This document shows positions 304 through 19,497 of a DNA stretch of 24,000 nt, in pieces (within the stretch, counting starts at the first letter, position 1; each line of letters begins with the position of its first letter). The DNA is from Candidatus Electronema aureum. GTDB lineage: Bacteria > Desulfobacterota > Desulfobulbia > Desulfobulbales > Desulfobulbaceae. Both the position numbers and the translations under genes were made by a program. The stretch covers positions 24,701 to 48,700 of the forward strand of contig NQJD01000013.1 of NCBI GenBank assembly GCA_004284765.1, in the 5' to 3' direction. The notes under the pieces were generated by a model that was given only the letters and a program-made list of their open reading frames with translations, searched no databases and was not told where the DNA came from.

Positions 304-1005
304 ATGGCAAAAGAAAAAATCCTGATAATTGAGGACGCGGAGGATATCCTTGAATTAGTCCGCTACAATTTAGCCAAAGAAGGCTATCAGGTGAGTTGCG
401 CCATGTCCGGCGAAGAGGCCTTGAATGCGGTACGTCAGGCCACTTTTGATTTGATTTTGCTGGATATTATGCTACCAGGTTTAGACGGCTTGGAGGTCTG
501 CCGACGGCTGCGGCGGAACATCGCCACAGCTCATGTCCCCATCATTATGCTCACTGCCAAAAGCGAAGAAACCGACATGGTGGTCGGCTTGGAGCTGGGC
601 GCGGATGATTACATGACCAAGCCTTTTAGCCCGCGTGTGCTCACTGCCCGCATTCGGGCCGCGCTGCGCCGCTCGCAACAGGAAGGTCAGTTGGAAGAAA
701 AAGCTGATATCTTCAGCTTCGGCGATTTGCAAATTGACTGCTCACGTCACGAAGTTTCGGTCAAAGGCGAGTTAGTGCGCCTAACCGCCACTGAGTTTGG
801 CATTTTGCTTTGCCTAACCAAGCGACCTGGCTGGGTCTTTAGTCGTTATCAGATTGTTGAGGCGGTACGCGGCGAGGATTACAGCGTCACCGACCGAGCT
901 GTGGATGTGCAAATTGTTGGCCTACGAAAAAAGCTCGGCGAGCTGGGTTGCTGCATTGAAACTGTGCGCGGGGTTGGCTATCGTTTTAATGCTCAAACCG
1001 GGTGA
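304..1005 (+). CDS. OmpR/PhoB-family two-component response regulator (receiver + winged-helix DNA-binding domain)
   Basis: Receiver motifs are present: ILIIEDAEDI, LILLDIMLPGLDG (phospho-acceptor Asp) and MLTAKSEE..GADDYMTKPFSP. The C-terminal winged helix has LTATEFGILL, DRAVDVQIVGLRKKL and TVRGVGYRF, close to E. coli PhoB as I recall it. I chose ATG 304 (MAKEKILIIED); the GTG-229 extension has no receiver-like sequence. Confidence 0.9.
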   Translation: MAKEKILIIEDAEDILELVRYNLAKEGYQVSCAMSGEEALNAVRQATFDLILLDIMLPGLDGLEVCRRLRRNIATAHVPIIMLTAKSEETDMVVGLELGADDYMTKPFSPRVLTARIRAALRRSQQEGQLEEKADIFSFGDLQIDCSRHEVSVKGELVRLTATEFGILLCLTKRPGWVFSRYQIVEAVRGEDYSVTDRAVDVQIVGLRKKLGELGCCIETVRGVGYRFNAQTG

Positions 1006-1904
1006 TCCAAGATTGCCAAGCCAAAGCCAGTTTTTCCATAACCATTACCGTTGTAAAGCATATATCTTTGCCCATCATGATCAAACACAAAGGGATATTC
1101 AATCATTTCAGAATCCCATCCGGTCAGAGATACATCTATACCAGATAAATGATCAAGTCTGTCCCAATGCTTACCATCAGTTGATTCTGCATAGCCAATT
1201 CGATAGGAATGCCCACGGAAAGAATACCACATTCGCCAGCGGTCTGTATCATGAATAACTGATGGACGAGATATTGCATATTCATGTTCAGTCGAATAAT
1301 CAATTGCAACAAGACCATCCCGCTGCCAGCTTATTCCATCATGAGATTCAGCATATTTTATATGATATTTATGTTCTGGCTTTCCATTGCGTATCTGCCA
1401 GCCTGTACAGGACAAATACCACATTTTCCAAATATTTTCTTCATGGATAACACAGCAGCTGGCGCAAAAATGAGGCTCTCGTACAGAGCGGTCAAGAATT
1501 GGGCCGTTGGAATATCTCTTAAATATTTTTCCATCTGTACTAATTGATAATCCTATTGAGTTCCGAAATGGGACGGTTACACCAAGATTCCACCCTATAT
1601 AATAAAAATATTTTTCATCACCTTGCTGTGTAAGCCAAGTTGCCATTGCGCCGCTATCATCAAATTCTCCCATTTCTCCTGGTGATAAAACTGGTTCAGA
1701 AGACAAATCAACGATTTGATCAGGACGAGTGATGTCAATCACTACATAACCGGTAAAGCTTCTGTTTAAATTGTCTCTGGTGCTGAAATAAATTTTGAAT
1801 AATCTATCTTCCACATTTTCAGCAACAGGAACGGCAGCATGTGACCTCATCCACTCAATATTACCTGACGGACAAAAAACATGGCCAAGTTTTTTCCATT
1901 TCAT
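993..1904 (-). CDS. Beta-propeller protein of the GH32/43/130-like fold (predicted glycosidase/glycosylase), last gene of the AT-rich glycan operon
   Basis: 303-aa ORF with an ATG start. It begins MKWKKLGHVF.P......W..SHAAVP....D.LFKIYFSTRD. Recurring W/Y-rich blades (WKMWYLS, WRMWYSF, YRIGYAES.DG.HW) resemble propeller proteins seen in polysaccharide clusters. The function is not established. The 3' end overlaps the convergent regulator gene by 13 nt. Confidence 0.7.
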   Translation of the reverse strand: MKWKKLGHVFCPSGNIEWMRSHAAVPVAENVEDRLFKIYFSTRDNLNRSFTGYVVIDITRPDQIVDLSSEPVLSPGEMGEFDDSGAMATWLTQQGDEKYFYYIGWNLGVTVPFRNSIGLSISTDGKIFKRYSNGPILDRSVREPHFCASCCVIHEENIWKMWYLSCTGWQIRNGKPEHKYHIKYAESHDGISWQRDGLVAIDYSTEHEYAISRPSVIHDTDRWRMWYSFRGHSYRIGYAESTDGKHWDRLDHLSGIDVSLTGWDSEMIEYPFVFDHDGQRYMLYNGNGYGKTGFGLAILDHPV

Positions 1905-1911
1905 GGTATGT

Positions 1912-2577
1912 TTATATTTTTCTCAATCTCGTACTCGGTACTTTTGAACGTTCAGTTGCTGTACTAATATATACACCTTCTGGTTCTGTATCAGCCAAGA
2001 GGAGCGCGTTAGCCCCAATGACGCATCTATCTCCTACTTTGATGTGATCACGTAATGTTGCATTTACACCAATAAAACATTGTTCGCCAATTTCAACACC
2101 TCCAGAAATAACCACATGAGATGATATAAAATTATGATCCTTTATTACCGAGTGATGACCAATATGATTTCCGCTCCAGATAGTCACGTTGTTGCCGATA
2201 GTGACAAAAGGCTGAATAGTATTGTCTTCTAATATAAAACAATTTTCTCCGATCATCCCCTGATTAAGAACTGTGGCTTTAGGGCTAATAAAATTAGCAA
2301 ATTGATATCCTAACAATTTTGCTTTGATATATTTTTCTTTCCTTACAGCATTAAGTTTTGAATAACTTAATGCCACAAAAAAAGCGTGATCTGTCGGAGG
2401 ATAGAACCTCAATACATCTTCAAACGCAACAACAGGAAGATCGCAAAATTTGTGTTCTTTTATATATTCTGCATCAACTACAAAAGCTACAGTTTGGCAT
2501 TCTGAATCAGTGCTGAAATAAAAATGAGCAATCTGGGCAATGTCTCCTGTGCCAAAAATAACAAGTTTTTTTTTCAT
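1912..2577 (-). CDS. NeuD/PglD-type sugar N/O-acyltransferase (left-handed beta-helix, hexapeptide repeats)
   Basis: The N-terminus has a Rossmann-like MKKKLVIFGTGDIAQIA. The C-terminal part carries hexapeptide repeats (IGENCFI..NTIQPFVTIGNNVTIWSGNHIGHHSVI..HVVISGGVEIGEQCFIGVNATL..VGDRCVIGANALL). The ATG at 2575-2577 overlaps the upstream stop (ATGA). The ORF-track start at 2661 was rejected as an extension. Confidence 0.85.
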   Translation of the reverse strand: MKKKLVIFGTGDIAQIAHFYFSTDSECQTVAFVVDAEYIKEHKFCDLPVVAFEDVLRFYPPTDHAFFVALSYSKLNAVRKEKYIKAKLLGYQFANFISPKATVLNQGMIGENCFILEDNTIQPFVTIGNNVTIWSGNHIGHHSVIKDHNFISSHVVISGGVEIGEQCFIGVNATLRDHIKVGDRCVIGANALLLADTEPEGVYISTATERSKVPSTRLRKI

Positions 2578-3209
2578 AGTATTTTTTTCACAATAATTGT
2601 AAATTCGTAAAGACCGTAATCGTGTAACAAGGATACATTTTTTGAGTATAATCTCTTGCAACGATCAAACAGTACACAAGGATCAGCGTAATAAAGATAA
2701 TCACGTTTTTTATCAGTATCAGAATATGATGTTAAGCAATTAAAGGCGAATCCAACGCGACTCGTTCGATGCAGGTCGTCTAAAACAGAATGAATGTAGT
2801 CGCTCCATTCAGCATTCGTCTTTTCAAGACGGACATTAAAAATACCACTTGCCATTCCATAATCGGCATTTTGGTCAGGATGAGACGAGATAACAAACCT
2901 TACTTGCGATCCGCGCTGACAATGCCGCGTTGCGGCTTGAATCATCTCACGAGATACATCAATTCCAATATATAAAAATTCCTGATATCTACTTAGGAGG
3001 AAATGGTAAAATGCCCCATAGCCGCAACCAAGGTCATTCAAAGAAAAATTTGAATCTGTAACAATAAGTTTACAAAGTTGTTCAAAGCGGATCGTTTGAC
3101 TTTCGTGTCCATTCCAATCGACACCTTGAGGCGTCTGTCCATGCTGCGCAAGTTTTTCTGCGTAATAAGCAGCAACATCATTAAGAAGATCAACTTTCTT
3201 TTCTTGCAT
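2574..3209 (-). CDS. Class I SAM-dependent methyltransferase
   Basis: Motif I LNDLGCGYGAF is followed by YIGIDVS and an acidic loop. Start chosen at ATG 3207-3209 (MQEKKVDLL..), which overlaps the upstream GT2 gene by 20 nt. Confidence 0.85.
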   Translation of the reverse strand: MQEKKVDLLNDVAAYYAEKLAQHGQTPQGVDWNGHESQTIRFEQLCKLIVTDSNFSLNDLGCGYGAFYHFLLSRYQEFLYIGIDVSREMIQAATRHCQRGSQVRFVISSHPDQNADYGMASGIFNVRLEKTNAEWSDYIHSVLDDLHRTSRVGFAFNCLTSYSDTDKKRDYLYYADPCVLFDRCKRLYSKNVSLLHDYGLYEFTIIVKKIL

Positions 3210-4119
3210 AAATTTCTCGCACGATGGTATAAGGCCGCTGCTTCGTTTCCGAAAAAATTTTTGAAAGGTAAATACCAATCACGCCAACAAAGGAAATTAT
3301 CATGCCACCAAGCAACCATATTGAAGCCATGATCGATGTCCATCCGCTCAACGGTTTAGCAAGAAATGCCAAATGCACAAGCAACCAAGTAATATAGCTT
3401 ACAGCAAGAAAAGAAATAATAATTCCAATGTAAAAAATGATAATCAATGGAGCATTACTGAATGAAGTTACTGAGTTGACCAATAAAGCCATTTTTCTAC
3501 GTAAAGTATATGTTGTTGCACTCTCACTGTACTTTTTTATAAAATGAGGTTGTTGATTAAAACCAGTGATTTGCCAGAGGCCTGCTATTAAAATTTCTCT
3601 TTCTTTATGGAGTAATAAAGAATCAACGTAACGTCGTGTCATTAATCGTGCTGTAACGGCATTTTCAGGCAAAGAGAGTCCTGTTAGGATGTTAAATAAA
3701 CTATAGAATAAACTTCCGCTCCAACGCTCAAACCATCCCCCTTTGCGCTGTTCTTGAACCCCATAAATCACATCGCAGCAATCTCTTTGCATCTGCATGG
3801 AAAAGCTGATTAGATATTCTGGCTCTTCTTCAAGATCACTGTCGATTAAAAAAATTTGTTCCCCTTTAGCATAGGAAAGTCCTGTCATCATCGCTTTGTG
3901 ATGGCCAAAATTACGAGAAAGATCAACGAGAATAACGTGATGATCACGCACGGTAAGTTCTATGGCCAGCTCAAGACTCTTATCAGGCGAGCCGTCATTG
4001 ACGAAAATAATTTCATATTCTTCGTCAACGATCTGGCGGGCCACTGCACTTGCCCGTTCATGGAATTCTTGAATATACGGGGCAGATTGATAGAGAGTTG
4101 TGACAATAGAAAGCTTCAT
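3190..4119 (-). CDS. GT2 polyprenyl-phosphate glycosyltransferase (GtrB/ArnC-like) with C-terminal transmembrane pair
   Basis: The start [15 protein letters not shown], then [10 protein letters not shown] and LIDSDLEE (DxD), are GT-A signatures. Two hydrophobic helices lie near the C-terminus ([21 protein letters not shown]; [23 protein letters not shown]), as in bactoprenol glycosyltransferases. The ATG at 4117-4119 overlaps the upstream stop (ATGA). Confidence 0.88.
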
Positions 4120-4811
4120 GGAAGAATATGTTTCATATAATGACATGCTTCTTTGCCACAATTAAACAAAAGATCAAGAATCGTTACGCCATGCTTGAAA
4201 TTTCCCCAAAGTTGTGTATATTCAGGGTAGCCTGCATAATCAAACCATGTCAATTTGATGTTCATATCACGGAACACCTGTTCTTCGATATAATTTTTAG
4301 CAGCTGGGCCTGAAATATATTCAGTGCCGCCTGCCTGCACACAAAGATCAGCTAACCGTTCAGTTTTACTGTTGATCAAATTGTAATCACTTGAATGAGT
4401 GATAGCAGTTTTGATCCCCAAGTAATGACAAATAGCTTTAATAAATTTTCGATTAAGTTCGGATAGACCACTATATGACTCGCCAAGATACAGCGGCTCA
4501 AGCCATTCAGCAATTTCGCTAAAATGTTCTGCCCGACGATAGTTCATCATTAATTTTTTCCAATGATCTACAGCCCAGTCAGTTCCATCAATTTCAGTTT
4601 CATTTATTTTCTGATAAAATTTACCTTTTACTATAACTGGAACTGTCATCCATTGGACACCTTGTGGTGTTTTAATTTGATTTCTATTTCGCCAGTCTCT
4701 TCGGGTAAACTGCATGTCGTCATAAAGAATAAATTCATCAACAGCGGCAATTATATCAAAGTAGCCCTTCCAAGGAATATAATTTGATTGAATAATAGCT
4801 ATTTTTTTCAT
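4116..4811 (-). CDS. WbqC-family protein (polysaccharide-cluster protein of unknown biochemistry)
   Basis: [21 protein letters not shown]...[21 protein letters not shown] matches the WbqC-like N-terminal signature as I remember it. It is the first gene of the minus-strand operon. Start chosen at ATG 4809-4811; ATG 4830-4832 is an alternative. Confidence 0.75.
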
Positions 4812-4966
4812 ATATTTTTTGTTGCAACGCATCGTATATGATACCGATACTGTTTGTGATAAAGTAGCTCACGTCGCGAATATTCCTCTTCAGTCCTTCT
4901 TGCGCTGTCAGCGACAGAATTGAGGGGTAAAATTACCATGTTTCCTTCTTTGCTCCCAGTAAATAA

Positions 4967-5779
4967 ATGAACCTTGCTATAAAAAACGCCTTAGTGCTGG
5001 GTGCGAGCCGAGGCATTGGCCGGGCAATTGCCCGCAGATTGACCGCTGAAGGAGCGCAACTGATCTTGCCTTGGTTTGATTGGCCTGAATCCGTGCAGGA
5101 AATGGAAGAGGAATTCAGCGGACACCTTACCTTGCAGGCTGATCTGCGTGATGCGGAGAGCGTGCAGGCAATGAGTCGGCGTATCGCGAACGAATACGGT
5201 ACGCTCCATGTCCTGATCAACAACATTGAGCGTGGCGGTATGCCGGTGGTTCATGGCAGCTATCGCCGCCCAGTCAATCGCGAGCAGTGGCAGCTGGAAC
5301 TCGACACTACGCTACACGCCAAGTGGTTGGTTTTTGATGCCTGCCTGCCCTTGCTGCGGCAGGCCAAGCAGGCGGCAGTGGTCAATATCTCCTCAGTGGC
5401 AGCGATCACCGGACGTTCTGGCCCAGCTGGTCTACTCTTCAGCGACGGCTATACTGCCGCAAATCGAGGTATCAGTTCGTTCACCGAAACGTGGGCGCGG
5501 ATAGCTGCGCCAAGCATTCGGGTCAACGAGCTGATGCTCGGCTTGATCGACAGCCGCCACGGGCCAAGCACTAAGGGATGGTCTTTATTAAAGGAAGCGG
5601 AACGAGAGGCACTGCTGCGGCACACTCTGCTGGGGCGCACTGGTAGCCCAGAAGAGGTAGCGGAAGCCGCGCTTTTTCTGCTGAGGGCAGATTATATGAC
5701 CGGCGCGACGCTTCGGTTAGATGGCGGCTTTGTCTTGGGTGGGGAAAAGGTGCCAGAGATGCCGGACGGGGTAATCTGA
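4967..5779 (+). CDS. Short-chain dehydrogenase/reductase (SDR) family protein with atypical active-site motif
   Basis: NAD(P)-binding LVLGASRGIGRAIARRL and NNIE (NNAG-like) are present, plus NISSVAA (catalytic Ser region). The usual YxxxK reads YTAAN (no Lys). ATG start; convergent with the next gene across a 3-nt gap. Confidence 0.85.
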   Translation: MNLAIKNALVLGASRGIGRAIARRLTAEGAQLILPWFDWPESVQEMEEEFSGHLTLQADLRDAESVQAMSRRIANEYGTLHVLINNIERGGMPVVHGSYRRPVNREQWQLELDTTLHAKWLVFDACLPLLRQAKQAAVVNISSVAAITGRSGPAGLLFSDGYTAANRGISSFTETWARIAAPSIRVNELMLGLIDSRHGPSTKGWSLLKEAEREALLRHTLLGRTGSPEEVAEAALFLLRADYMTGATLRLDGGFVLGGEKVPEMPDGVI

Positions 5780-7245: not shown

Positions 7246-9729
7246 TCAAATGGAAACCGCTTTAGATCGTCTCCGCAAGAGTCGTAATGCGTACTGACTG
7301 CAAAGAATCAGTCCGAAACCAGCAATCACCAAGAAAAACAACTCAGATAAACCGATATGAAGTGCTATCCAGGCGACACCGATCACCGGTAAAAGTAGCA
7401 TTCTCACGGCAAAGCGCAAGGTATTATGCTGACTGATGACATCAGCAATCGATGGAGAATGCTGATAATAAAAATTGATTAAAGAACGGCTGACTGCGTT
7501 ACCGGACATGAATTGATCTCGGAAATCGCGAAGTATCTGTACCGCAGGATCGAAGACCGAACCAAAAGCGGCGGTTGCGATAAAGCAAGAATCAGCTGTT
7601 CTGAAGCTCACTTGGTTGCCATAATAGGTTGTGCCGCCGCTGACTGCATAGGCGCGTGCATAAAAGAAGGTGCCGGGCTTCAGATTTTTCAGCTTACTGC
7701 TGAATGCGCCACTGCCGCTGCCTGCGCTCGTGTTTCCTTCTTCGAGAAATTTGGTTTCGCTGGTAGTAGCTGTTGCATCAGCTGTGGTACTATCTGCGGC
7801 GATGGCTGTACCTACGAAGAAATTGCCGACATTCTTCAGTGCATTGTTTACCATTTTCTCATAATCTACAAATAGCTGATAAGAATACGTAGGATCGGTT
7901 GCGGTGATAGTTACGGCAAAAGAAATAATACCATCTGTTGTGTTCACCGCTCCGCTGGCCGTATTCTTGCAGCGAACGTAGTATTTTTTTTCTCCATCTT
8001 GCAAGTTGGTGACAAGCTGTGAATGTTCCTTTGCTCCCGTCGTGGCGAATGTGCTTGCCATTTGATCGTAATCCTTGTTCGGCGTGATATTATCATACTT
8101 ACAGGTCGCGTTCACATCCGTTGACAGGCTCAAGGTCGCATAGGCCGTGCTGATATCGCCGTTGCTGGGGGACAGATTTGACATCACCGGAGCATTATTG
8201 CTTGTGTTACTGTTTGATGAAGATGATGACGAGCTGCTTGCTGAAGATGTCAGCACGGGATTAGGCATCGTACCAAAGACAAGGCCCCGTTGGGTGACAT
8301 TGCTCAGGCCGTTAAGCACCTCAGCCGGAATAATAACCGTGGTTCTGGTCAATTCATACGGCGTACCAGTTAGGATATACTGATTGCCTGTATTCACATC
8401 ACTCAACGTATTGATACCTAATACATTATTGGCAGTCGTGCTGCTGTTTGCTGCTATTGCCGTCGTGTATTTGCTCACTGCTGCTGCACTGGAACCCGCA
8501 GCTGCCTTGCTCTCGCCCACTGCCACTACGCTATTCTCAGAAACTGCGGCCAGCGCGGTTGAAGTGTCTTTGCCGCCGCTGAAACCAGTGGTCACGACAG
8601 CGGAAGTAGTAAATTGCGCGGAGTTTTCCTGCGCCGCACCCGTATCTTTGCTGTAGGTGATGAGAAGAAACTCGCGCTGCTGATCAACGGTTTTGAACCC
8701 AGCAGCTACAATTGTTTCATCGATAACAACAACATCATACAGCACATCATCTTGAGTTCCGACAGCAGTGGCTAATACGCCTAAGTCGCTGTCCGGGCGG
8801 CCTTCAGCAGTGAAGCGGAACAGAGCCGCGTCGCGTTTGTTTTCCTTGCCGACTGAACCAGCCACCAAGATACCGCCATCCTTGTTGACAAACATGCCAT
8901 AGCCTTCGCTGAACACGCTACTGTCCGGGGGGATGGCAATGCCGTTGTCGCCGAATTCTTTATCTAATTGCCCAGCGGCATCAAAGCCCAGCACCATCAG
9001 GCCGCGCCGCTGTCCGTCGCTGTAGGAGCCGGACACAAGAATGCGCCCGCTCTCGGTCAGGGCCACGCTTTCCGCTTGGGCATCCACACCCACCACGCTG
9101 AGAGAGAAGCCTTCTTTGGCAAAAGATAGGTCGGGTGTGCCGTTAGCCAAATACCGCCCCAGCACCACCACCCTGCCGTTTACCCCTTGGGCGACACCGG
9201 CGATGACAATGCTGCCGTCTTCTTGCACAATCATGTCGGTGATTTCGTCATGACTGCTACCCACTGCTGTGACCGCTATGCCTTCCGCGCCGAAACTGTG
9301 GTCTAAGGTGCCGTCGCTGTTGTAGCGCACTAAAGCGAAATCGCGGTTTTTGTTGCTGCTGTAGCCTCCAGCAAGGATTTTGCCGTCCGGTTGAAGGGCA
9401 AGAGTCAAGGCTTCATCATCAAAGGAGCCAACAGCAGTGGTGACAGTGCCGTCAGAGTTGAACGCAGGATCAATGGAGCCGTCCGGCAAAAGGCGAAAAA
9501 GCATGAAATCCTTGTCCGCTGTTGTGCTGGATGATGAACCCGCAGCAACAATCTTGCCGTCTGGCTGGACAATGACCGCGTTGGCACGGCTTCCGTACAC
9601 GCCCAGTTCCACTGCTACCCGGCCATTAAGGCCGAAATTGACATCAAGAGCGGCGGCGGATGCCTCGGAATAAAAGGCGGCGAGCAGGGCAGTACCAAGG
9701 GCAAGCAAACGGATGGGATGGATATTCAT
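7246..9729 (-). CDS. Large secreted/anchored protein: signal peptide, delta-60-type beta-propeller repeats, Ser/Thr/Ala-rich linker, two Ig/Fn3-like modules, C-terminal CFIATAAFGS motif plus two TM helices
   Basis: The ATG at 9727-9729 gives MNIHPIRLLALGTALLAAFYSEASAAA (signal peptide); the track start at 9738 is TTG. There are at least six ~55-aa repeats with D.xF(G/N)..G..........QPDGKI..AG (LDVNFGLNGRV, IDPAFNSDGTV, LDHSFGAEGIA, PDLSFAKEGFS, LDKEFGDNGIA ..). A poly-Ser run reads SSASSSSSSSSNSNTSNN. The C-terminus is ADSCFIATAAFGS..LRDFRDQF.. followed by two hydrophobic segments. Confidence 0.8.
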   Translation of the reverse strand: MNIHPIRLLALGTALLAAFYSEASAAALDVNFGLNGRVAVELGVYGSRANAVIVQPDGKIVAAGSSSSTTADKDFMLFRLLPDGSIDPAFNSDGTVTTAVGSFDDEALTLALQPDGKILAGGYSSNKNRDFALVRYNSDGTLDHSFGAEGIAVTAVGSSHDEITDMIVQEDGSIVIAGVAQGVNGRVVVLGRYLANGTPDLSFAKEGFSLSVVGVDAQAESVALTESGRILVSGSYSDGQRRGLMVLGFDAAGQLDKEFGDNGIAIPPDSSVFSEGYGMFVNKDGGILVAGSVGKENKRDAALFRFTAEGRPDSDLGVLATAVGTQDDVLYDVVVIDETIVAAGFKTVDQQREFLLITYSKDTGAAQENSAQFTTSAVVTTGFSGGKDTSTALAAVSENSVVAVGESKAAAGSSAAAVSKYTTAIAANSSTTANNVLGINTLSDVNTGNQYILTGTPYELTRTTVIIPAEVLNGLSNVTQRGLVFGTMPNPVLTSSASSSSSSSSNSNTSNNAPVMSNLSPSNGDISTAYATLSLSTDVNATCKYDNITPNKDYDQMASTFATTGAKEHSQLVTNLQDGEKKYYVRCKNTASGAVNTTDGIISFAVTITATDPTYSYQLFVDYEKMVNNALKNVGNFFVGTAIAADSTTADATATTSETKFLEEGNTSAGSGSGAFSSKLKNLKPGTFFYARAYAVSGGTTYYGNQVSFRTADSCFIATAAFGSVFDPAVQILRDFRDQFMSGNAVSRSLINFYYQHSPSIADVISQHNTLRFAVRMLLLPVIGVAWIALHIGLSELFFLVIAGFGLILCSQYALRLLRRRSKAVSI

Positions 9730-9823
9730 AATCAGCAAATCCTGAAGGTGAAGAACGGAGGAAATTTTGTCATCTTACCATAGCTGATTCAGCAGAAAAT
9801 GACAAGTCCTTGTTGCGGCAGCT

Positions 9824-10849
9824 TTATTTGCCAAAACTACAAACTGGGTACTGGCAGAATTTACAATTTCGGCAAAGGCCACCGTGGCCCATTGCAGCGA
9901 AGTCTTCCCGACTGAGGCGTTCTCCTGCCAGAATGCGTGGCAGTACCAAATCAAAGACGGTAATTTTATGAAACATGCCGCAGGCAGGCAAACCGACCAC
10001 CGACACCGTGCCGATTCTGCCGACCAAAAACATAGCACCAGGCAGCACGGGGGTGCCGTAAACGATGTCCTTAGCCCCAGCCTCGCGAATACCGGCGCGG
10101 GTGACATCATCAGGATCGACCGACATGCCGCCGGAGGTGATGACTAACTCCGCACCGACAGCGATACATTGGCTGATTTGCTCGGCAATTAAACCAGCAT
10201 CATCTGGCGCGAAACCCACCCGCACCACCTCTGAGCCGAGGACCGTGAGTTTGCCGCGCAGCACGGCCTCGAATTTATCTTCAATTCTGCCGTGAAAAAC
10301 CTCGCTGCCAGTGATGACTATCCCGGCCTTGACCATAGGCAAGGACAGCACTCGGACGATCTTTTCACCTGCGTTAGCAATTTCGACTGCCTGCGCAATT
10401 AAGCTTCGGTCGCCAACCAAGGGAATCAAGCGAACAGCTGCTACTTGCTCGCCTTTTTTCACCGGCGTATTGTCATGCAAGGTGGAACACATCACTTCGC
10501 CGAGCAAATTGAAGCGGAACGAAGCTTCTTTATCAATTTTTAGCAGGCCATCATGGGCAGCAAGAATGCTCACCTTGCCTTCATGTACGTCATCAGAGTA
10601 TTCCACGCCGCTGCCCGCCAAAGCCGCAGCCATCAATAGTGCTGCTTCGTTTTCATGAATTTCCTCAGCTGCAAGCTCAAGGACGTAAATATGCTCCTTT
10701 CCTAAGCTGCGCAGGCGGTCAATATCTTCCTGGCGGACAATATGTCCTTTTTTAAAAGCTCGTCCTTTGAATTTGTCTTGAACAATTTCAGTGATGTCAT
10801 GAGGCAGAACCATGCCCACGGCTTGATCAACAGGGATACACTTTTTCAT
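9824..10849 (-). CDS. Molybdopterin-binding (MoeA/MogA-like MoCF domain) protein with C-terminal Cys cluster
   Basis: MoCF-biosynthesis-like core: KAGIVITGSEV...AELVITSGGMSVDPDDVT...PVLPGAMFLVG. The C-terminus is CRNCKFCQYPVC (C-x2-C-x2-C-x4-C). ATG start at 10847-10849. Confidence 0.7.
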   Translation of the reverse strand: MKKCIPVDQAVGMVLPHDITEIVQDKFKGRAFKKGHIVRQEDIDRLRSLGKEHIYVLELAAEEIHENEAALLMAAALAGSGVEYSDDVHEGKVSILAAHDGLLKIDKEASFRFNLLGEVMCSTLHDNTPVKKGEQVAAVRLIPLVGDRSLIAQAVEIANAGEKIVRVLSLPMVKAGIVITGSEVFHGRIEDKFEAVLRGKLTVLGSEVVRVGFAPDDAGLIAEQISQCIAVGAELVITSGGMSVDPDDVTRAGIREAGAKDIVYGTPVLPGAMFLVGRIGTVSVVGLPACGMFHKITVFDLVLPRILAGERLSREDFAAMGHGGLCRNCKFCQYPVCSFGK

Positions 10850-11331: not shown

Positions 11332-11498
11332 CAATCGGGGTTTGTTATGAATCGGTTTTCTTTTTTGCCTTGCCAGACTGCTGAAGAAATTATATTCTAA
11401 TGAAGAAAAGCTGTTCTCTTATTGTGCTTGTTTTTTCGTAAATACTCGAAATAGATGAGGCATGAGAGAAAAAATTAACAGAAAAGGAGAGTTGGAAC

Positions 11499-12623
11499 AT
11501 GAAAGTGAAGATGCTGCTGCAAACTGCTGCGCTACTGCTTCTATCAGCAGGGCTTGCCCAAGCCGGAGGTACTAAGTTCGGCAAAAAACATTTGACTTGC
11601 GATGATTGTTCAGCAGAGTGCCTGAAAAATCCCTATGCTAAAGGCTGCCCGGATATCTGCAAGTCACCTGATTGTCAGGCATCTTGCAATGACTGCCCGG
11701 CAGAATGTAAGCAGCATCCGGGCGCGAAGGGTTGTCCTGAGATATGTACAGATATCAAATGTCAGTCCTGTGAAGATTGCACCCCTGAATGCAAAAAGAA
11801 TCCTACAGACACAAGCTGCCCAGATATCTGCAAGGACATGAAATGCTACACGTGCGATGACTGCTCGGTAGAATGTGTCATTGATCCTACTGGTAAAGAT
11901 TGTTCTCCAGTCTGCGCTGATCTCGGTTGCAATGTCTGTGATAAATTTCCCAAAGATTGTCCGGCCTCATGCAAGGACAACCCGAACGACCCTGATAAAT
12001 GTCGCGCTGAATGCAAGGATGTTCCTGAAAAATGCTTGCTACCAAAGGGAACCTGCGATGATTGTTCTCCGGCATGTAAAGATGGCACTGAAAAAGATCC
12101 AGAGGCCTGTAAATCTTGTCCGCAGGAATGTCTGCCGGAGTTACCACCGGTTGTTGAGACTGAACGGCCTTTCAAGTTTGTTGGTGATCTCGGCTACTTC
12201 AAGCAGACTGATCCGGCAGATTACATCTTTGGACGGTTCGGCGTAGAATATAGTCCCTTTGCTACAGGCAGCGAATTTGAAAACATCTCTTTCTTGGGCA
12301 TGATTGGTGCTGCCGCACAAGTGAACGGTACAGATGGTGACGATGCGCTATTGCTGGATGTTTTTGCCAACTACAACTGGAAGGCAGGCGATGTTGACGG
12401 CTGGGTCGGTCTCGGTGTGGGTGGCTGGATCACCTCCGGCGATGTGGAAGATGATTCAGGAGACACTGACATAGATGTTATGGCCAACATCGGTGCCCGC
12501 GTCTATGGCGATCCAAAAGATTTCAATGTATCTTTCTTCTTAGAGGTACGCAGTGCGGTTGATGAGTTTGACGGTTTGGCCGAATATGGTCGTTTCGGTG
12601 CAGGTGTTCGCTGCAAGTTCTAA
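11499..12623 (+). CDS. Secreted cysteine-rich tandem-module protein fused to a C-terminal predicted outer-membrane beta-barrel
   Basis: RBS AAGGAGA (11484-11490) precedes the ATG. Signal peptide MKVKMLLQTAALLLLSAGLAQA. Residues 34-211 hold 36 Cys (hand count) in six modules. Residues ~215-374 are Gly/Asp/aromatic-rich with alternating hydrophobic strands and end ..GRFGAGVRCKF (terminal Phe). A strong terminator follows. Confidence 0.8.
   Translation: MKVKMLLQTAALLLLSAGLAQAGGTKFGKKHLTCDDCSAECLKNPYAKGCPDICKSPDCQASCNDCPAECKQHPGAKGCPEICTDIKCQSCEDCTPECKKNPTDTSCPDICKDMKCYTCDDCSVECVIDPTGKDCSPVCADLGCNVCDKFPKDCPASCKDNPNDPDKCRAECKDVPEKCLLPKGTCDDCSPACKDGTEKDPEACKSCPQECLPELPPVVETERPFKFVGDLGYFKQTDPADYIFGRFGVEYSPFATGSEFENISFLGMIGAAAQVNGTDGDDALLLDVFANYNWKAGDVDGWVGLGVGGWITSGDVEDDSGDTDIDVMANIGARVYGDPKDFNVSFFLEVRSAVDEFDGLAEYGRFGAGVRCKF
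11598..12131 (+). repeat. In-frame tandem Cys modules: four ~28-aa (~84-nt) copies of C-x2-C-x3-C-x8-C-x3-C-x4-C, plus two degenerate copies
   Basis: CDDCSAECLKNPYAKGCPDICKSPDC / CNDCPAECKQHPGAKGCPEICTDIKC / CEDCTPECKKNPTDTSCPDICKDMKC / CDDCSVECVIDPTGKDCSPVCADLGC, then two looser 6-Cys units. The copies are diverged at the DNA level, so this is not a recent expansion. Confidence 0.75.
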
Positions 12624-12633
12624 GGTATAAACA

Positions 12634-12668
12634 GGGTCTGCCGGTCGGCAGACCCTTCTGATTTTTTT
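12634..12668 (+). terminator. Rho-independent terminator after the Cys-rich protein gene
   Basis: GGGTCTGCCG-GT-CGGCAGACCC perfect inverted repeat (12634-12655), then a T7 run at 12662-12668, 10 nt past the stop codon. Confidence 0.65.
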
Positions 12669-14501: not shown

Positions 14502-15800
14502 ATGAATATAACAAAAAGAGATTTTTTCGTCTCAATTATTCTGTTAATTATTTCCGCTTTTTTTTTCTGTTATGTAAACTTGAGCATTAAGTCATTCGAT
14601 GAATGGCATTCTTTGAAATATGCAACACCAGACAGTAAAACATATCTTGATGTTGGCAGATGGATTTTAGGTGAAAATACATTTGATAATGCAGAAAGCA
14701 GCGTTGCGATAAGACCTTTTTTTTATCCTCTCGTTATTGTAATTTTAGATTCAATACATCCTTTAGCTGTAGCAATATTTCAATTTACTTTATGGCAGAT
14801 TCAAATTTTGATGATTTATTTTTTTTGTATTAAAGTAAGCAGATTATTTATTTTGTCAATTTTAGTCTCGGTGTTAAGTATTGGCATCCTTTCTCCTATA
14901 GGGATATCTTTACATGCTCTCACGGAAACGTTATCATCATTTTTCATTACTTTTTCCATATTCATATTTATCTTTTTTTTGGAAAAAAATTCATACAGAT
15001 ATATTTATGCATATTTATTATCGTTATCTTTTTGTTCCGCAACCAGACCATCTTATATATATGTATATATTTTTTCAATAATGATACTTTTCTTTTTTTT
15101 AATAAAAAAAAGGAAGTTTTTTTATATATGCATACTTGCAACAACATTTCTTCCGATATCATTACAATATTATGTAATGAAGAAACATTTTGATAGCTAC
15201 AAATTATCTTTTATTGATTCCTTTGCTATAAATGATTATTTTTTATCAGGACTTGAGCTGTATAAAAGAAAAGTTGAATTTGATGCTAATAGAAATTTAT
15301 ACATACGAATGGTTCGCGATGCGAGACGTGAATATATGGCAGAAATGATTAAGGAAAAAGGGTATGGAGAAACATCAAAAAAAGTAAAAAGTGATCTTCT
15401 TGCCAGTTTAGTTAATTACCCTAATGAAAGTCTTCGTCAATTTAAAGACTTAATTATTGAAAATTCAATGCAGCCATCATCATTTATTACGGCTAATAAA
15501 AATTTATACATTGCTACTTTTGCTCAAAGCAAACTTCTTTTGACAATAAATATAATTTCTGCTTTATTTTTTTCTGTGATTATTTTTAATAAAAAATATT
15601 TTGCTGAAGAAATTTATGAAAAAAATATCGTATTCAGCTTGTTGATATTTTTCTGCATATATTTTACATATATTTCTACAGGGCTTACCTTCTGGCAAGG
15701 AGACAGATTTATTATTCCTATATACTATGCAAGTATCATGTTGTTTGTGCATCAAACAAGAATGTTTTTTGCATTTATCAGAAATACAAATAAGAAATAA
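14502..15800 (+). CDS. Polytopic inner-membrane protein, candidate GT-C-type (ArnT/PMT-like) glycosyltransferase or related glycan polymerase/ligase
   Basis: 432 aa with roughly 10-12 hydrophobic helices. An acidic motif (SFDEWH) sits in the first extracytoplasmic loop after TM1, as in GT-C enzymes. A ~100-aa soluble helical insert spans residues ~230-335. The gene is extremely AT-rich. The functional call is tentative. Confidence 0.5.
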   Translation: MNITKRDFFVSIILLIISAFFFCYVNLSIKSFDEWHSLKYATPDSKTYLDVGRWILGENTFDNAESSVAIRPFFYPLVIVILDSIHPLAVAIFQFTLWQIQILMIYFFCIKVSRLFILSILVSVLSIGILSPIGISLHALTETLSSFFITFSIFIFIFFLEKNSYRYIYAYLLSLSFCSATRPSYIYVYIFSIMILFFFLIKKRKFFYICILATTFLPISLQYYVMKKHFDSYKLSFIDSFAINDYFLSGLELYKRKVEFDANRNLYIRMVRDARREYMAEMIKEKGYGETSKKVKSDLLASLVNYPNESLRQFKDLIIENSMQPSSFITANKNLYIATFAQSKLLLTINIISALFFSVIIFNKKYFAEEIYEKNIVFSLLIFFCIYFTYISTGLTFWQGDRFIIPIYYASIMLFVHQTRMFFAFIRNTNKK

Positions 15801-15807
15801 TATTAAA

Positions 15808-16383
15808 ATGAAAGAGCCGATCTTTGAACCTGTTTTAAGGAAAATACGTATAGGAAAAGTTATTGATGAAATCAAAAATATTCCAAGATGCAATCTTCTC
15901 GATATTGGATGCGGTTTTAACTATAGTTTTTTGTCTGCGGTGGAACAATATATCGAGCATGGGACAGGTATTGATTTTAAAGTCAATGAAATTTATTCTG
16001 AAAAAATATCAACCATCAAGATGGTGTTAGATGAAACCTTAAACTTCAATGACTGTTCATTTGATGCTGTAACAATGCTTGCTGTTCTTGAGCATATAGA
16101 CAAGCCGATACATATATTTTCTGAAATATATCGAGTTTTAAAGCCAGGTGGAAAATTAATACTTACGGTTCCTGGAAAAAAAGCAAAGCCGTTGTTGGAA
16201 TTTCTTGCTTTCAAGATAGGAATTGTTAGTAGAGCTGAAATAGAAGACCATAAAAAATATTATGATTTAGAAGAGATCAGCCAGCTCGTATTAAATATCA
16301 ATGAATTTGAAATAATAAAGCATGAGCATTTCCAGTTTGGAATGAATAATTTTTGTGTTATAAAAAAATCTATGATTAGCTGA
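15808..16383 (+). CDS. Class I SAM-dependent methyltransferase (cassette gene 2)
   Basis: Motif I LLDIGCGFN, then FDAVTMLAVLEHI and LKPGGKLILTVP. The ATG at 15808 starts 8 nt after the preceding stop. The ORF-track start at 15727 would overlap the membrane protein gene. Confidence 0.85.
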   Translation: MKEPIFEPVLRKIRIGKVIDEIKNIPRCNLLDIGCGFNYSFLSAVEQYIEHGTGIDFKVNEIYSEKISTIKMVLDETLNFNDCSFDAVTMLAVLEHIDKPIHIFSEIYRVLKPGGKLILTVPGKKAKPLLEFLAFKIGIVSRAEIEDHKKYYDLEEISQLVLNINEFEIIKHEHFQFGMNNFCVIKKSMIS

Positions 16384-16684: not shown

Positions 16685-17575
16685 ATGACAGCAGCACAAC
16701 GAATTCAGGGCGCGATCACCGCGATTGTCACCCCGATGCGCGACGGCAGAGTTGACGAGGAAAGCCTCGTCAATCTGATCAATTTTCAGATCGACAACGG
16801 CATTCATGGCCTCGTGCCCTGCGGCACCACCGGCGAATCAGCCACCCTCAGCTTTGCCGAGCACAAGCGGGTGATCGAGCTGACCGTGAAGACCGTGGCA
16901 GGCCGGGTGCCGGTCATTGCCGGAACCGGGGCCAACAACACTCTTGAGGCCATCGAGTTGACCGAGTCGGCCAAGGACAGCGGCGCGGACGCAGTACTCT
17001 CTGTGGTGCCCTATTACAATAAGCCGAGCCAGGAAGGGCTGTACCGGCATTTCAAGGCCATCACCGAAACGGTGGATATTCCGGTGGTGCTCTACAACGT
17101 GCCAGGCCGCACCGTCACCAATATGGCTCCGGCCACGGTCGCACGGCTGGCCGAGCTGCCCAATGTCATCGGCATTAAGGAGGCCTGCGGCTGCCTGAAC
17201 CAGATTTCCGAGATCATCCGCATCTGCCCGAAGGACTTCATTGTGCTTTCTGGCGATGACTTCACTTCCATGCCCACCGTGCTGATTGGCGGCAATGGCG
17301 TGATCTCAGTGACCTCGAACGTAGCTCCTAAAGCGATGGCCGAGCTGATGGAAGCGGCCCTGCGCGGCGATTTGGCCAAGGCCAAGGAGATTCATTACAA
17401 ATTCTTCCCGCTCATGGGCACGATGTTCTGCTATCCCAGCCCAGCTCCGGCGAAAAAGGCCGTGCATCTGATTGGCAAGATTGCCTCGCCGGAAGTGCGC
17501 CTGCCGATGACCGAGATGGACGAGCCGTCGCTGAACAAGCTGACTGCTGAGATGAAGAAGGTGGGATTGATTTGA
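16685..17575 (+). CDS. dapA: 4-hydroxy-tetrahydrodipicolinate synthase
   Basis: AIVTPM, VPCGTTGES, YYNKP, IGIKEA (Schiff-base Lys) and the overall 296-aa length. RBS AAGGAGA at 16673-16679. Confidence 0.95.
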   Translation: MTAAQRIQGAITAIVTPMRDGRVDEESLVNLINFQIDNGIHGLVPCGTTGESATLSFAEHKRVIELTVKTVAGRVPVIAGTGANNTLEAIELTESAKDSGADAVLSVVPYYNKPSQEGLYRHFKAITETVDIPVVLYNVPGRTVTNMAPATVARLAELPNVIGIKEACGCLNQISEIIRICPKDFIVLSGDDFTSMPTVLIGGNGVISVTSNVAPKAMAELMEAALRGDLAKAKEIHYKFFPLMGTMFCYPSPAPAKKAVHLIGKIASPEVRLPMTEMDEPSLNKLTAEMKKVGLI

Positions 17576-17631: not shown

Positions 17632-18570
17632 ATGAAGAAAAGACCGAGAATTATTCAGAAAACAAAAAGCCTTTTGCAGAAAGAAATATCATCGATATGT
17701 CCTTTCTGTGATAATGAGGATGTCGATCATTTTCATTTTCATCATATTGATGAAAATCCAGAAAACAACGACATGCTTAACCTCTTGATGCTATGCCCTA
17801 TTTGTCACTCAAAAATTACAAAGGGCGATATAACGAGAGAAGATGTTGAACGGAAAAAGCGAGACATATCAACTAATCAAAAGGACGTTCTTTTGTTTTT
17901 TCAAGAAATAGCTCCGCTTGTATTTGACTTGATTATTTTTGGAGAACAGGAGAAGGATCGTAGCATAAATCCTTGGGTCAGCAGGCTGGAATCAAGATAC
18001 AGCGAGATATCTAACGAATTAAGAAGATTAGCTATTAAAGATGTTTCTATTCAGAAAGGATGGACTGTCTTGTTAGATGAATTGGCAAAGTCTATTGATA
18101 ATTTTGTTAATAGGGAAGTTTGTCTGTATCGCGGCTTAACAGAAGACATTAAAGATGCCGTGGAAAAAGCTAAACACCTCAAGGTATCGATAATTGATCC
18201 TTTTTTCGCTTCACAAAGGGCACCTTTAACACTTAAAAAAGATTTTGCGATGCAACTCAGGATGTTAAAAAGCCTGAATGATAGAGCGGAAATGATGCTC
18301 AACGAAGGAAAAATTGAGGAGTTACAGGGGAAAGTCTCAGAAATAGGTCACGATTTATTGATATTGAGCATGTACAATACAGAGGATTTCCCGAAAGCTA
18401 TAAAAGGAAAATTATATAGCATTTCAAGAGAAATCCATTTAATGGAAACAAAGAGAAATAATCATTCTTTCGATAGACAGGAGTCATTCAGAAATCGACT
18501 CAATGAACTTAGCGGACAATTAAACGCGCTGGCAGTAGAACTGCCGAATGTAACGTATGCAGCAAACTGA
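17632..18570 (+). CDS. HNH (beta-beta-alpha-Me) nuclease domain protein with an unrecognised ~230-aa alpha-helical C-terminal domain
   Basis: The N-terminal ~75 aa read CPFC..DVDHFHFHHID.NPENNDMLNLLMLCPICHSKI. That is a CxxC/CxxC zinc knuckle flanking the His-Asn-His catalytic pattern. I do not recognise the rest (residues ~80-312). The gene is AT-rich relative to flanking dapA/dapB. ATG start. Confidence 0.8.
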   Translation: MKKRPRIIQKTKSLLQKEISSICPFCDNEDVDHFHFHHIDENPENNDMLNLLMLCPICHSKITKGDITREDVERKKRDISTNQKDVLLFFQEIAPLVFDLIIFGEQEKDRSINPWVSRLESRYSEISNELRRLAIKDVSIQKGWTVLLDELAKSIDNFVNREVCLYRGLTEDIKDAVEKAKHLKVSIIDPFFASQRAPLTLKKDFAMQLRMLKSLNDRAEMMLNEGKIEELQGKVSEIGHDLLILSMYNTEDFPKAIKGKLYSISREIHLMETKRNNHSFDRQESFRNRLNELSGQLNALAVELPNVTYAAN

Positions 18571-18684: not shown

Positions 18685-19497
18685 ATGACCAAAGTAATTG
18701 TAGCCGGAGCAGCCGGTCGGATGGGCCGCCGCATCTGCGACATGGTGCGGCAGCATCGCGACCTAACCTTGAGCGCGGCCTTTGAACACGCGGACAGCCC
18801 TTTTATCGGCAAGGATGTCGGTGAAGTGGCGGGCTTCGGCGCGACCGGCGTGAAAATATCTGCGGGCTTGGAATCAGTGATTGATCAAGGCGAGGTGATT
18901 ATTGATTTCACCTTCCACAAGGCCACGATGGAATTCATCAAAGTTGCGGCCAAGCATGGCCGGGCAATGGTGATTGGCACCACCGGCCTGACTGCGGAGA
19001 ATATCGCAGTGCTGCGCGAGACCGCCGCAGGCCATTTCCCCTGCGTTCAGTCGCCCAACATGGCCGTGGGCGTGAACGTGCTGTTCAAGCTGGTGGAGAA
19101 AACCGCTGCCGTGCTGGGCAATGCTTATGATGTGGAGATTGTCGAGGCGCACCACCGAATGAAGAAGGATGCGCCGTCCGGCACCGCGCTCCGGCTGGGC
19201 GAAATGGCCGCTGCTGGCTTGGGCCGCAATCTGGCGGAAGTGGGCGTGTATGAGCGGCACGGCATGATCGGCGAGCGCACGGACAAGGAGATCGGCATCC
19301 AGACCATCCGGGCCGGGGATATTGTCGGCGAGCATACCGTCTATTTCGCTGGTGCGGGCGAGCGGATCGAGATCACTCATCGCGCCCACAGCCGCGACAA
19401 CTTCGCACGCGGCGCGGCCTTGGCTGCGGCGTGGGTTGCGGACAAGCCCAAGGGATTGTACACCATGTTTGACGTGCTTGATCTGGGCAATTTCTAA
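18685..19497 (+). CDS. dapB: 4-hydroxy-tetrahydrodipicolinate reductase
   Basis: KVIVAGAAGRMGR (NAD(P) binding), IGTTGL, SPNMAVGVN and EAHHRMKKDAPSGTA (signature motif). Confidence 0.95.
   Translation: MTKVIVAGAAGRMGRRICDMVRQHRDLTLSAAFEHADSPFIGKDVGEVAGFGATGVKISAGLESVIDQGEVIIDFTFHKATMEFIKVAAKHGRAMVIGTTGLTAENIAVLRETAAGHFPCVQSPNMAVGVNVLFKLVEKTAAVLGNAYDVEIVEAHHRMKKDAPSGTALRLGEMAAAGLGRNLAEVGVYERHGMIGERTDKEIGIQTIRAGDIVGEHTVYFAGAGERIEITHRAHSRDNFARGAALAAAWVADKPKGLYTMFDVLDLGNF

Follow-up and report, generated by a model that had tools for sequence, protein, structure and literature searches.

The gene, its signals and its product

We analysed a 24,000-nucleotide (nt) stretch of the Candidatus Electronema aureum genome (GenBank assembly GCA_004284765.1, contig NQJD01000013.1, positions 24,701 to 48,700), hereafter called the window, and concentrated on one gene located at positions 11499 to 12623 of its forward strand. 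The gene encodes a 374-amino-acid (aa) protein that very probably is exported by the Sec pathway and combines an array of novel six-cysteine modules, exposed to the periplasm, with an eight-stranded beta-barrel embedded in the outer membrane (OM). The features of the gene and of its product are as follows, where pLDDT is the predicted local distance difference test.

11370..11395, forward strand: promoter core, private to the gene, from upstream alignment and a promoter scan
11484..11491, forward strand: ribosome-binding site AAGGAGAG, 7 nt before the ATG, from the sequence
11499..12623, forward strand: complete coding sequence, 374 aa and a stop codon, from the translated open reading frame (ORF)
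11499..11564, forward strand: Sec-type signal peptide, residues 1-22, cleavage after AQA, read from the sequence
11598..11936, forward strand: four canonical 28-29-aa six-Cys modules, residues 34-146, from a pattern search
11937..12131, forward strand: two degenerate six-Cys modules, residues 147-185 (module 5) and 186-211 (module 6)
12132..12164, forward strand: Pro/Glu-rich linker LPELPPVVETE, residues 212-222, pLDDT below 50 at residues 216-221
12165..12620, forward strand: predicted C-terminal eight-stranded OM beta-barrel, residues 223-374, from AlphaFold2 (AF2), Foldseek and strand hydropathy
12633..12666, forward strand: intrinsic terminator, 10-bp stem with 7 GC pairs, 4-nt loop and T-run

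The N-terminus, MKVKMLLQTAALLLLSAGLAQA followed by GG after the cleavage point, has a basic n-region and a hydrophobic core ahead of an AxA site, and it contains neither a lipobox nor a twin-arginine motif. The signal peptide is conserved in the 25 full-length orthologs described below, where A22 and G23 are invariant and the twin-arginine motif is absent throughout. The full-length AF2 model, built on the ortholog alignment, reached a mean pLDDT of 80; the signal peptide scored low, as expected of signal peptides.

Cysteine is by far the most prominent feature of the mature N-terminal part, since 36 of the 37 Cys of the protein lie within residues 34-211 (20% of that stretch). The canonical modules follow the pattern C-[DEN]-D-C-x3-C-x2-N-P-x4-C-P-x-[IV]-C-x4-C, with a Cys spacing of 3,4,9,4,5,(3-4), and the regular expression proposed in an earlier, sequence-only reading of this DNA matched exactly four times (residues 34-59, 63-88, 91-116 and 119-144). 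Module 5 is conserved among the orthologs, and module 6, which lies in a region of low confidence (pLDDT 51-64 over residues 181-220), is present, absent or duplicated. Thirty Cys (C34 to C179) are invariant or nearly so among the 25 orthologs and C372 is not conserved; across the family, the N-terminal array extends over 150-260 aa and contains 5-8 modules and 30-48 Cys. The Cys pattern is far beyond chance. The modules are only 42-58% identical to one another in protein and 51-62% in DNA sequence, so their duplications are old. In the AF2 models, the canonical modules adopt a helix-loop-helix arrangement (pLDDT 78-90) around a twin-Cx3C core (C37-x3-C41 ... C50-x3-C54, with equivalents in modules 2-4); the DSSP helices, which are short (4-5 residues), span both Cx3C segments in both models. 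The array is modelled as a defined fold, with a pLDDT of 86.9 and a predicted template-modelling score (pTM) of 0.61. Between genera, its non-Cys positions are 48-65% identical, as compared with 50-81% for the barrel.

The array gave no Pfam or NCBIfam match at E<=10, and neither a sequence search nor Foldseek found a counterpart in the PDB. An exhaustive HMMER profile search of 1.84 billion (1.84e9) representatives returned family members and one compositional false match only; this sole cross-match, the DSL/EGF-like protein P0064 (E 6.9e-4), was judged to reflect composition. A word-index homology search was uninformative on this point: with the Cys domain alone it yielded 8 candidates and 0 matches although a 98%-identical ortholog exists, so it is blind to such a query and its silence is not evidence of absence, and with the barrel alone it returned short fragments only. 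As modelled, the six-Cys module defines a new fold family of proteins to which no PDB structure corresponds.

The C-terminal part is predicted to form eight long strands within residues 225-373 (225-236, 240-251, 263-277, 283-296, 299-312, 324-337, 343-353 and 365-373; pLDDT 82-97); the last connector includes a short helix. With this predicted model as query, the top Foldseek matches in the PDB were all small OM barrels, namely OprF-N (4rlc), OmpA (1bxw), OmpW, NspA, OmpX, PagL and PagP (the entries matched also include 2f1t, 1p4t, 2m06, 2erv and 3gp6), with a probability of 1.00, E values of 7.5e-5 to 1.6e-2 and TM scores (target) of 0.44-0.66. Moreover, each strand, averaged over the 25 orthologs, is amphipathic, with one hydrophobic face and one polar or Gly face, and the charged residues facing the lumen are invariant across orthologs. 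The barrel gave no match at E<=10 to the families of outer-membrane proteins (OMPs) in Pfam (OMP_b-brl, OmpA_membrane, OmpW and others) or NCBIfam, and a PDB sequence search gave no match; the barrel assignment is therefore structural. According to the model, it is a structural analogue or a very distant relative of the OMPs that stands outside their named sequence families. Even-stranded barrels keep both termini in the periplasm, as established for the eight-stranded OmpA, OmpX and OmpW, and this rule would place the N-terminal Cys array in the periplasm.

The connectors of the barrel are unusual. The odd-numbered ones, predicted to be surface loops (residues 237-239, 278-282, 313-323 and 354-364), are short, acidic and conserved (TDP, TDGDD, SGDVEDDSGDT and VDEFDGLAEYG), being rich in Asp and nearly invariant. 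The surface loops of OMPs are usually hypervariable, and this opposite behaviour suggests a conserved partner outside the cell, for example divalent cations, lipopolysaccharide (LPS) or the putative surface layer.

Altogether, the architecture put forward in the sequence-only reading, a signal peptide, a Cys array of no named family and a C-terminal OM barrel, is supported by the sequence and the model. The 374-aa ORF is present exactly as claimed, and the count of 36 Cys in residues 34-211 is correct. The four conserved and two degenerate six-Cys modules were recovered by the regular expression and the Cys positions, and the databases agree that the module belongs to no named family (Pfam, NCBIfam, PDB, Foldseek and the exhaustive profile search). 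Likewise, the signal peptide is borne out by its sequence features and by the invariant A22 and G23, and the eight amphipathic strands by the AF2 confidence, the Foldseek matches and the strand dyads; the location of the array under the inner face of the OM is supported, on the model, through the even-strand rule. Two further claims held in part. The terminal Phe, taken as a hallmark of the beta-barrel assembly machinery (BAM), is indeed found in the window protein, which ends in ...GAGVRCKF, but the final residue of the orthologs can be F, Y, M, L, R, Q or H. Their last strand retains its hydrophobic alternation. The statement that the ferredoxin pattern is absent is right in that the following Pro is missing, but the C-x2-C-x2-C-x3-C spacing itself occurs across two module boundaries (C88..C98 and C116..C126), without being general.

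The gene is a self-contained transcription unit. Its promoter core consists of a T-tract, a −35 element TTGCCA(GA) (TTGCCAGA), a 12-nt gap and a TA-rich −10 element, TTATAT, and it is invariant or nearly so in 15 aligned upstream regions from both genera of cable bacteria. Within the 250 nt upstream of these 15 orthologs, only the T-tract/TTGCCAGA, TTATAT and the Shine-Dalgarno (SD) sequence are conserved, the remaining intergenic DNA being unalignable. In 397.5 kb of cable-bacteria DNA, the core was found 18 times, each time about 130 nt upstream of a gene of the same type (type A, see below) and nowhere else; in the window, the site was also picked up by the promoter scan. The GAG core of the SD sequence (11489-11491) is invariant in the ortholog leader alignment and its flanking bases are mostly kept, and the terminator hairpin begins 10 nt past the stop codon. 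The conserved sigma70-like promoter, the near-consensus SD sequence and the strong terminator therefore define an autonomous unit whose expression signals are predicted to be strong. No Rfam element was found in the window. Three other ORFs that overlap the gene (11875..12246, forward; 11846..12175 and 11887..12147, reverse) were rejected as shadows of the conserved 374-aa frame.

In the Electrothrix leaders, an additional element lies between promoter and SD sequence (alignment columns ~240-290): an inverted repeat with the sequence TTTTAC-N13/14-GTAAAAT, which is missing from the Electronema leaders. Its left arm is kept across Electrothrix; the right arm reads GTAAAAT in loci L013 (~4790) and L016 (~9910) only, about 92 nt upstream of the ATG, and GTAGAAT or another sequence in the rest. 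The repeat may act as an operator or form an RNA hairpin; the window homolog has no Rfam family match there.

Distribution and relatives

A full-length search retrieved 47 homologs, among them the 25 full-length orthologs (41-98% identity). All named homologs among the 47 belong to Ca. Electronema, Ca. Electrothrix or entries earlier labelled 'Desulfobulbus sp.'. A scan of GTDB with one genome per species (185,579 genomes) gave 19 loci, all in Electronema, Electrothrix or Desulfobulbaceae metagenome-assembled genomes (MAGs), the closest being that of Ca. Electronema nielsenii F5 (97% identity). Indeed, every full-length ortholog that could be traced to a genome comes from a cable bacterium of these two genera or from a Desulfobulbaceae MAG. 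By these searches, the gene is restricted to cable bacteria and is present, in both genera, in each cable-bacteria genome where a relative was found. This restriction, together with the synteny with a nickel importer described in the next section, had been missed by the sequence-only reading, and these are the most interesting facts about the gene.

Three types of protein share the barrel. Type A, to which the window protein belongs, consists of a signal peptide, the Cys array and the barrel. Type B, found in cable bacteria (P0026, P0028, P0030 and P0034-P0037), starts with an unannotated N-domain of about 150 aa, followed by Cys modules with 8 Cys instead of 6 and the same barrel. Type C carries the N-domain, a Pro-rich or Ig-like spacer and the barrel, and no Cys array; in types B and C (e.g. 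P0036, P0043 and P0044) the barrel is homologous, with 42-56% identity over its length. The N-domain shared by types B and C has been lost from type A, and since type C has a Pro-rich or Ig-like segment where the other proteins have their modules, the Cys array occupies the position of a spacer. In three Electronema genomes, a type-B gene lies in tandem directly upstream of the type-A gene (L009:8947-9774, L010:8991-9764 and L011:2715-3512); the private promoter precedes type A only and is not found in front of these tandem type-B genes.

The length of the segment between modules and barrel varies. The Pro/Glu-rich linker measures 8 to 31 aa depending on the species. Orthologs with 30 Cys have a 26-27-aa acidic linker in place of module 6, and the Ca. 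Electrothrix gigas type (P0024, P0025; locus L020), from the lineage of giant cable bacteria and 404-417 aa long, has much longer Pro/Glu- and Thr/Gln-rich linkers on either side of a truncated last module. How far the array reaches may be adjusted to envelope geometry.

Genomic neighbourhood and the nickel question

In Electrothrix, the gene order is HAD, sigma54 activator, a 204-aa gene (reverse strand), the type-A gene, fd (reverse strand), nikM-nikL-nikK-nikQ, pgp and nifJ. The linkage to nik was observed at all nine Electrothrix loci with sufficient downstream flank, and the adjacency to nikLK persists even in E. gigas, despite the relocation of nikM and nikQ. The gene appears as 'hyp.' in Fig. 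2C of Hiralal et al. (PMC11247825), where it is not discussed. However, the nik linkage is absent from the window and from seven of seven Electronema loci, whose only shared neighbour is an upstream gene for an SdhC-like cytochrome b (with the tandem type-B gene in three of the seven). We considered the cytochrome b of Electronema and the 204-aa protein of Electrothrix as one neighbour conserved across genera, and rejected this because the two are unrelated (BLASTP E 1.4). Even where nik is close, an opposite-strand gene separates it from the type-A gene, which has its own promoter and terminator, and a search for NikR-type operators gave degenerate matches only, with no box shared between them. 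The conserved linkage or co-regulation expected of a nik accessory gene was accordingly not found. Since the synteny is confined to Electrothrix, the upstream neighbours are unrelated and no NikR-type box is shared, the nickel link amounts to genus-level synteny, suggestive but weak.

One Cys-less relative, P0043 (L023:3735-4694 and L024:3513-4472), which has a Pro-rich linker, lies directly after hypE-hycI-hypA-hypB, the genes for nickel insertion into NiFe hydrogenase. A family-wide association with nickel was nevertheless rejected: three other type-C contexts (fumarase, a Psr-like oxidoreductase and RACo/corrinoid genes) contain no nickel genes, and because the neighbours of these three relatives are unrelated, the hypAB adjacency is probably a coincidence.

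Closer to the gene, the window and E. nielsenii F5 both have a GT2 gene and dapF downstream. Upstream, the window carries a Trm112-like gene and the following divergent gene; the F5 contig (L004) begins inside the gene.

9824-10849, reverse strand: divergent neighbour, 341 aa, molybdopterin-binding MoCF_biosynth domain

This 341-aa protein scores far below all MoeA/MogA/CinA equivalog cutoffs, its N-terminal 170 aa have no family assignment and it ends in the Cys motif CRNCKFCQYPVC. We rejected it as a hint of molybdopterin or dithiolene chemistry; because of its sub-cutoff scores and its absence from beside any ortholog that has upstream flank, we treat its position as a coincidence.

Other parts of the window deserve brief mention. 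The product of a reverse-strand gene at 7246-9738, 830 aa long, combines five delta-60 repeats (DUF5122 beta-propeller) with a CFI-box-CTERM domain and may be a protein sorted to the surface. Two stretches, 1000-5000 (0.37-0.39) and 14502-16383 (0.27-0.40), are lower in GC than the rest (about 0.5). The first is a cluster for polysaccharide modification (GT2, WbqC, a hexapeptide transferase and methyltransferases), the second encodes a methyltransferase and a 432-aa ORF that matches no family, and both may be glycan genes acquired horizontally. Finally, dapA (16685-17575) and dapB (18685-19497) are separated by a forward-strand ORF at 17632-18570 that weakly matches HNH endonucleases and breaks the otherwise contiguous dapF...dapA-dapB set for lysine and diaminopimelate (DAP) synthesis.

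Possible role of the cysteine array in the cable-bacteria envelope

As to the state of the cysteines, on balance we lean slightly towards disulfides. Several observations point this way. The total Cys number is 30, 34, 36 or 44 in 23 of the 25 orthologs, and the two odd counts were traced to a probably mis-called start and to a linker Cys; moreover, in modules 5 and 6 and in the type-B modules, Cys are kept or added in even numbers while their spacing drifts. Across 34 family members, there is 1 CC and 1 CxC, against 266 CxxC, 381 CxxxC and 168 CxxxxC, and His is almost absent from the orthologs. The array also has conserved non-Cys residues, unlike metallothioneins, and a confidently modelled fold. 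Disulfide staples are thus favoured because Cys are gained and lost in even numbers, because modules 5 and 6 tolerate changes in spacing and because the twin-Cx3C segments are laid out on a helix-loop-helix; the most likely arrangement would be a ladder C1-C6, C2-C5 and C3-C4 in each module.

The sequence-only reading had suggested instead that the Cys might stay reduced, as in the periplasm of an anaerobe, and form a metal-thiolate or Fe-S scaffold. The premise does not fit the host, a cable bacterium whose filaments span sulfidic and oxic sediment (PMC13047784); the same protein therefore meets both redox regimes. The scaffold is only weakly supported, and not in the form stated. A metallothionein-like cluster is unlikely given one CC and one CxC against 815 longer spacings and the scarcity of His, and no metallothionein family of Pfam or NCBIfam matched at E<=10. 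An Fe-S scaffold is made unlikely by a signal peptide of the Sec type rather than of the twin-arginine translocation (Tat) type, and by the lack of any Fer4-type Pfam match at E<=10. Fe-S proteins are exported folded by Tat.

In cable bacteria, the fibres lie directly beneath the OM and no periplasm is discernible between the ridges (PMC11976967). The high sulfur content of the fibre sheath and its resistance to sodium dodecyl sulfate (SDS) and ethylenediaminetetraacetic acid (EDTA) have been ascribed to abundant disulfide bridges in protein (PMC8238962), and the excess of sulfur over the Ni cofactor to Cys and Met of the surrounding protein (bioRxiv 10.1101/2025.10.10.681601). It is because the space under the OM is filled by the periplasmic fibres in the ridges that we tentatively propose a cable-bacteria-specific envelope tether between the OM and the conductive-fibre layer, a possibility that we favour without regarding it as probable. 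The Cys array would hang in the periplasm from the inner face of the OM. Each module would be a short helix-loop-helix with a twin-Cx3C core (C2-x3-C3 ... C4-x3-C5) and an outer pair, C1/C6, and three disulfides per module would yield a rigid, acidic rod resistant to proteases and detergents. Such a rod could serve as an abundant structural tether or docking element from the OM to the fibre or sheath layer and may undergo thiol-disulfide exchange with sulfur-rich fibre components. On the outer side, the barrel may use its conserved acidic loops to bind either divalent cations or the surface layer. The Pro-rich or Ig-like spacers that replace the array in the Cys-less relatives are consistent with a role as a stalk. 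Our literature searches found no work on cysteine-rich cable-bacteria proteins and no paper citing any of six ortholog locus tags.

Several points weigh against this proposal. It is odd, if the array is a pure spacer, that type A has a stalk but lacks a head. No neighbour is conserved in both genera, and the gene is not tied to a fibre-assembly operon. Electrothrix orthologs do not conserve the aromatic residue at the end of the BAM signal. The disulfide ladder is deduced from spacing and secondary structure only, and cells in the sulfidic zone may keep their periplasmic thiols reduced; a search of the literature linking cable bacteria with the Dsb machinery found none.

An alternative, which we consider unlikely, is that the array is a reduced periplasmic thiolate buffer or chaperone for Ni (or Cu or Zn), either feeding the assembly of the Ni-bis(dithiolene) fibres or protecting against excess metal. 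Besides the position of the gene directly upstream of fd and nikM-nikL-nikK-nikQ at the nine Electrothrix loci, with nikLK adjacency surviving in E. gigas, and the hypA/hypB neighbour of one Cys-less relative, it would fit a host in which more than 95% of cellular Ni is periplasmic (PMC13534509), in which Cu and S colocalise at cell junctions (bioRxiv 10.1101/2025.10.10.681601) and in which published domain-based searches came up without a periplasmic Ni-binding candidate (PMC11976967). However, the synteny holds in one genus and in neither the seven Electronema loci nor the window, an opposite-strand gene lies before nik, the type-A gene has a terminator of its own, and searches gave no NikR-type box or other shared motif; the hypAB adjacency does not recur in the three other type-C contexts. 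His is scarce, the CC and CxC motifs that typify thiolate clusters are essentially lacking, modules 5 and 6 do not keep their spacing, and the Cys parity is even.

A more direct role in the wire is less likely still. Here the thiols would cap or crosslink the ends of Ni(ethene-tetrathiolate) oligomers, or ligate Ni, and so anchor the nanoribbons to the OM. Density functional theory (DFT) models that match the electron paramagnetic resonance (EPR) data need oligomer ends S-S-capped to cysteine (PMC13534509; bioRxiv 10.1101/2025.10.10.681601), the protein host of the cofactor is stated as not known (PMC11931547), and our protein is clade-specific, universal in cable bacteria, predicted to be in the right compartment and uniquely Cys-rich. 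Yet this case is purely circumstantial: there is no linkage to biosynthetic genes, the fibres run unbroken over centimetres whereas the protein is monomeric and membrane-anchored, and internal disulfides explain the even Cys parity and the defined fold equally well.

The other candidates fare worse. It seems very improbable that the array carries sulfane sulfur or polysulfide, with persulfide or polysulfide bridges on its Cys pairs while sulfide is oxidised in the periplasm, or that it buffers oxidants with sacrificial thiols in oxygen-reducing cells. The thiols are numerous and closely spaced, the filaments bridge oxic and sulfidic zones and the host is a sulfide oxidiser that deals with polysulfide in both of its compartments (PMC13047784); against this, the type-A contexts hold no sulfur-metabolism genes, no rhodanese, SoxY or TusA-like feature was seen, and a buffer needs no rigid conserved fold. 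A surface-exposed array, acting as adhesin or surface-layer anchor, has a slightly smaller chance again: acidic repeats rich in disulfides are typical of extracellular proteins, cable bacteria have a putative surface layer (PMC11976967) and one Cys-less relative has an Ig-like domain, but the model contains neither an autotransporter-like linker helix nor a 12-16-strand barrel. Eight-stranded barrels such as OmpA, OmpX and OmpW have a filled lumen and periplasmic termini. Finally, a polyferredoxin-like Fe-S chain acting as a periplasmic electron conduit is extremely unlikely, since the 28-aa period reminiscent of a ferredoxin half-repeat and the C-x2-C-x2-C-x3-C spacing, with a Cys-Pro 8 residues on, are set against the motif's missing Pro and its absence from the other module boundaries, the lack of a Fer4-type match, the Sec signal without twin arginine and Raman spectroscopy that excludes Fe-S clusters in the fibres (10.1101/2025.10.10.681601).

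The biological significance of the envelope tether, or of any of its closer alternatives, lies in the fibres themselves, which contain a Ni-bis(dithiolene) cofactor and conduct over centimetres, the proteins that make, carry or sheath this cofactor being described as not known (PMC13534509, PMC11931547). Genome searches found no periplasmic Ni/S-binding candidate (PMC11976967), but these relied on domain annotation and could not have detected a protein that lacks a Pfam match. At its boldest, one could imagine that the protein is the missing partner of the Ni-S wire, which nucleates, caps or covalently holds the nanoribbons or delivers Ni and S; we think this improbable. If it were true, each fibre would be fixed beneath its ridge by an OM-anchored thiol array, and the gene would, for the first time, open centimetre-scale biological conduction to genetics and biochemistry. 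Whether disulfide tether, Ni/Cu thiolate store or cofactor anchor, the protein is a concrete target in the search for the protein partners of the fibre, and the gene may serve as a marker of cable bacteria.

Several known systems resemble parts of this protein. Among them are the twin-Cx3C and Cx9C proteins (small Tims, Cox17-type CHCH proteins and plant alpha-hairpinins), which share the C-x3-C ... C-x3-C arrangement on two short turn-joined helices. In these proteins two disulfides staple the hairpin, and the reduced forms of Cox17 and the small Tims bind Cu or Zn. The likeness is one of design only, for no homology was detected by Pfam, PDB sequence, Foldseek or profile searches; the array has six Cys per unit instead of four, very short helices and 5-8 tandem units, and belongs to a bacterial, periplasmic, barrel-fused protein. 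The LDL-receptor class A, thrombospondin type 3 and EGF/DSL repeats are likewise small, tandem six-Cys modules rich in Asp and Glu that build rigid stalks, but they gave no Pfam match and the present modules are helical, not beta or knotted. With metallothioneins and the Csp copper storage proteins, the array shares a Cys content of about 20%, few aromatic residues in its modules and a possible capacity for soft metals; it differs from them in its lack of CC and CxC motifs, its conserved non-Cys residues and the absence of a metallothionein family match. Csp proteins, for their part, are long four-helix bundles exported by Tat.

As for the barrel, OmpA/OprF-N, OmpX, OmpW, NspA, PagL and PagP also have a Sec signal, an eight-strand barrel of about 150 aa and a charged lumen, and OmpA and OprF also join their barrels to a periplasmic domain able to tether the OM to the underlying layer. 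In the protein described here, however, the outer loops, variable in those barrels, are short, acidic and strongly conserved, and the terminal aromatic residue is not conserved; the periplasmic domain would be N-terminal rather than C-terminal, and a Cys array takes the place of the peptidoglycan-binding OmpA_C domain. Overall, the protein belongs to the known kind of small OM barrels joined to a periplasmic domain, but its own such domain, the Cys array, has no known relative.

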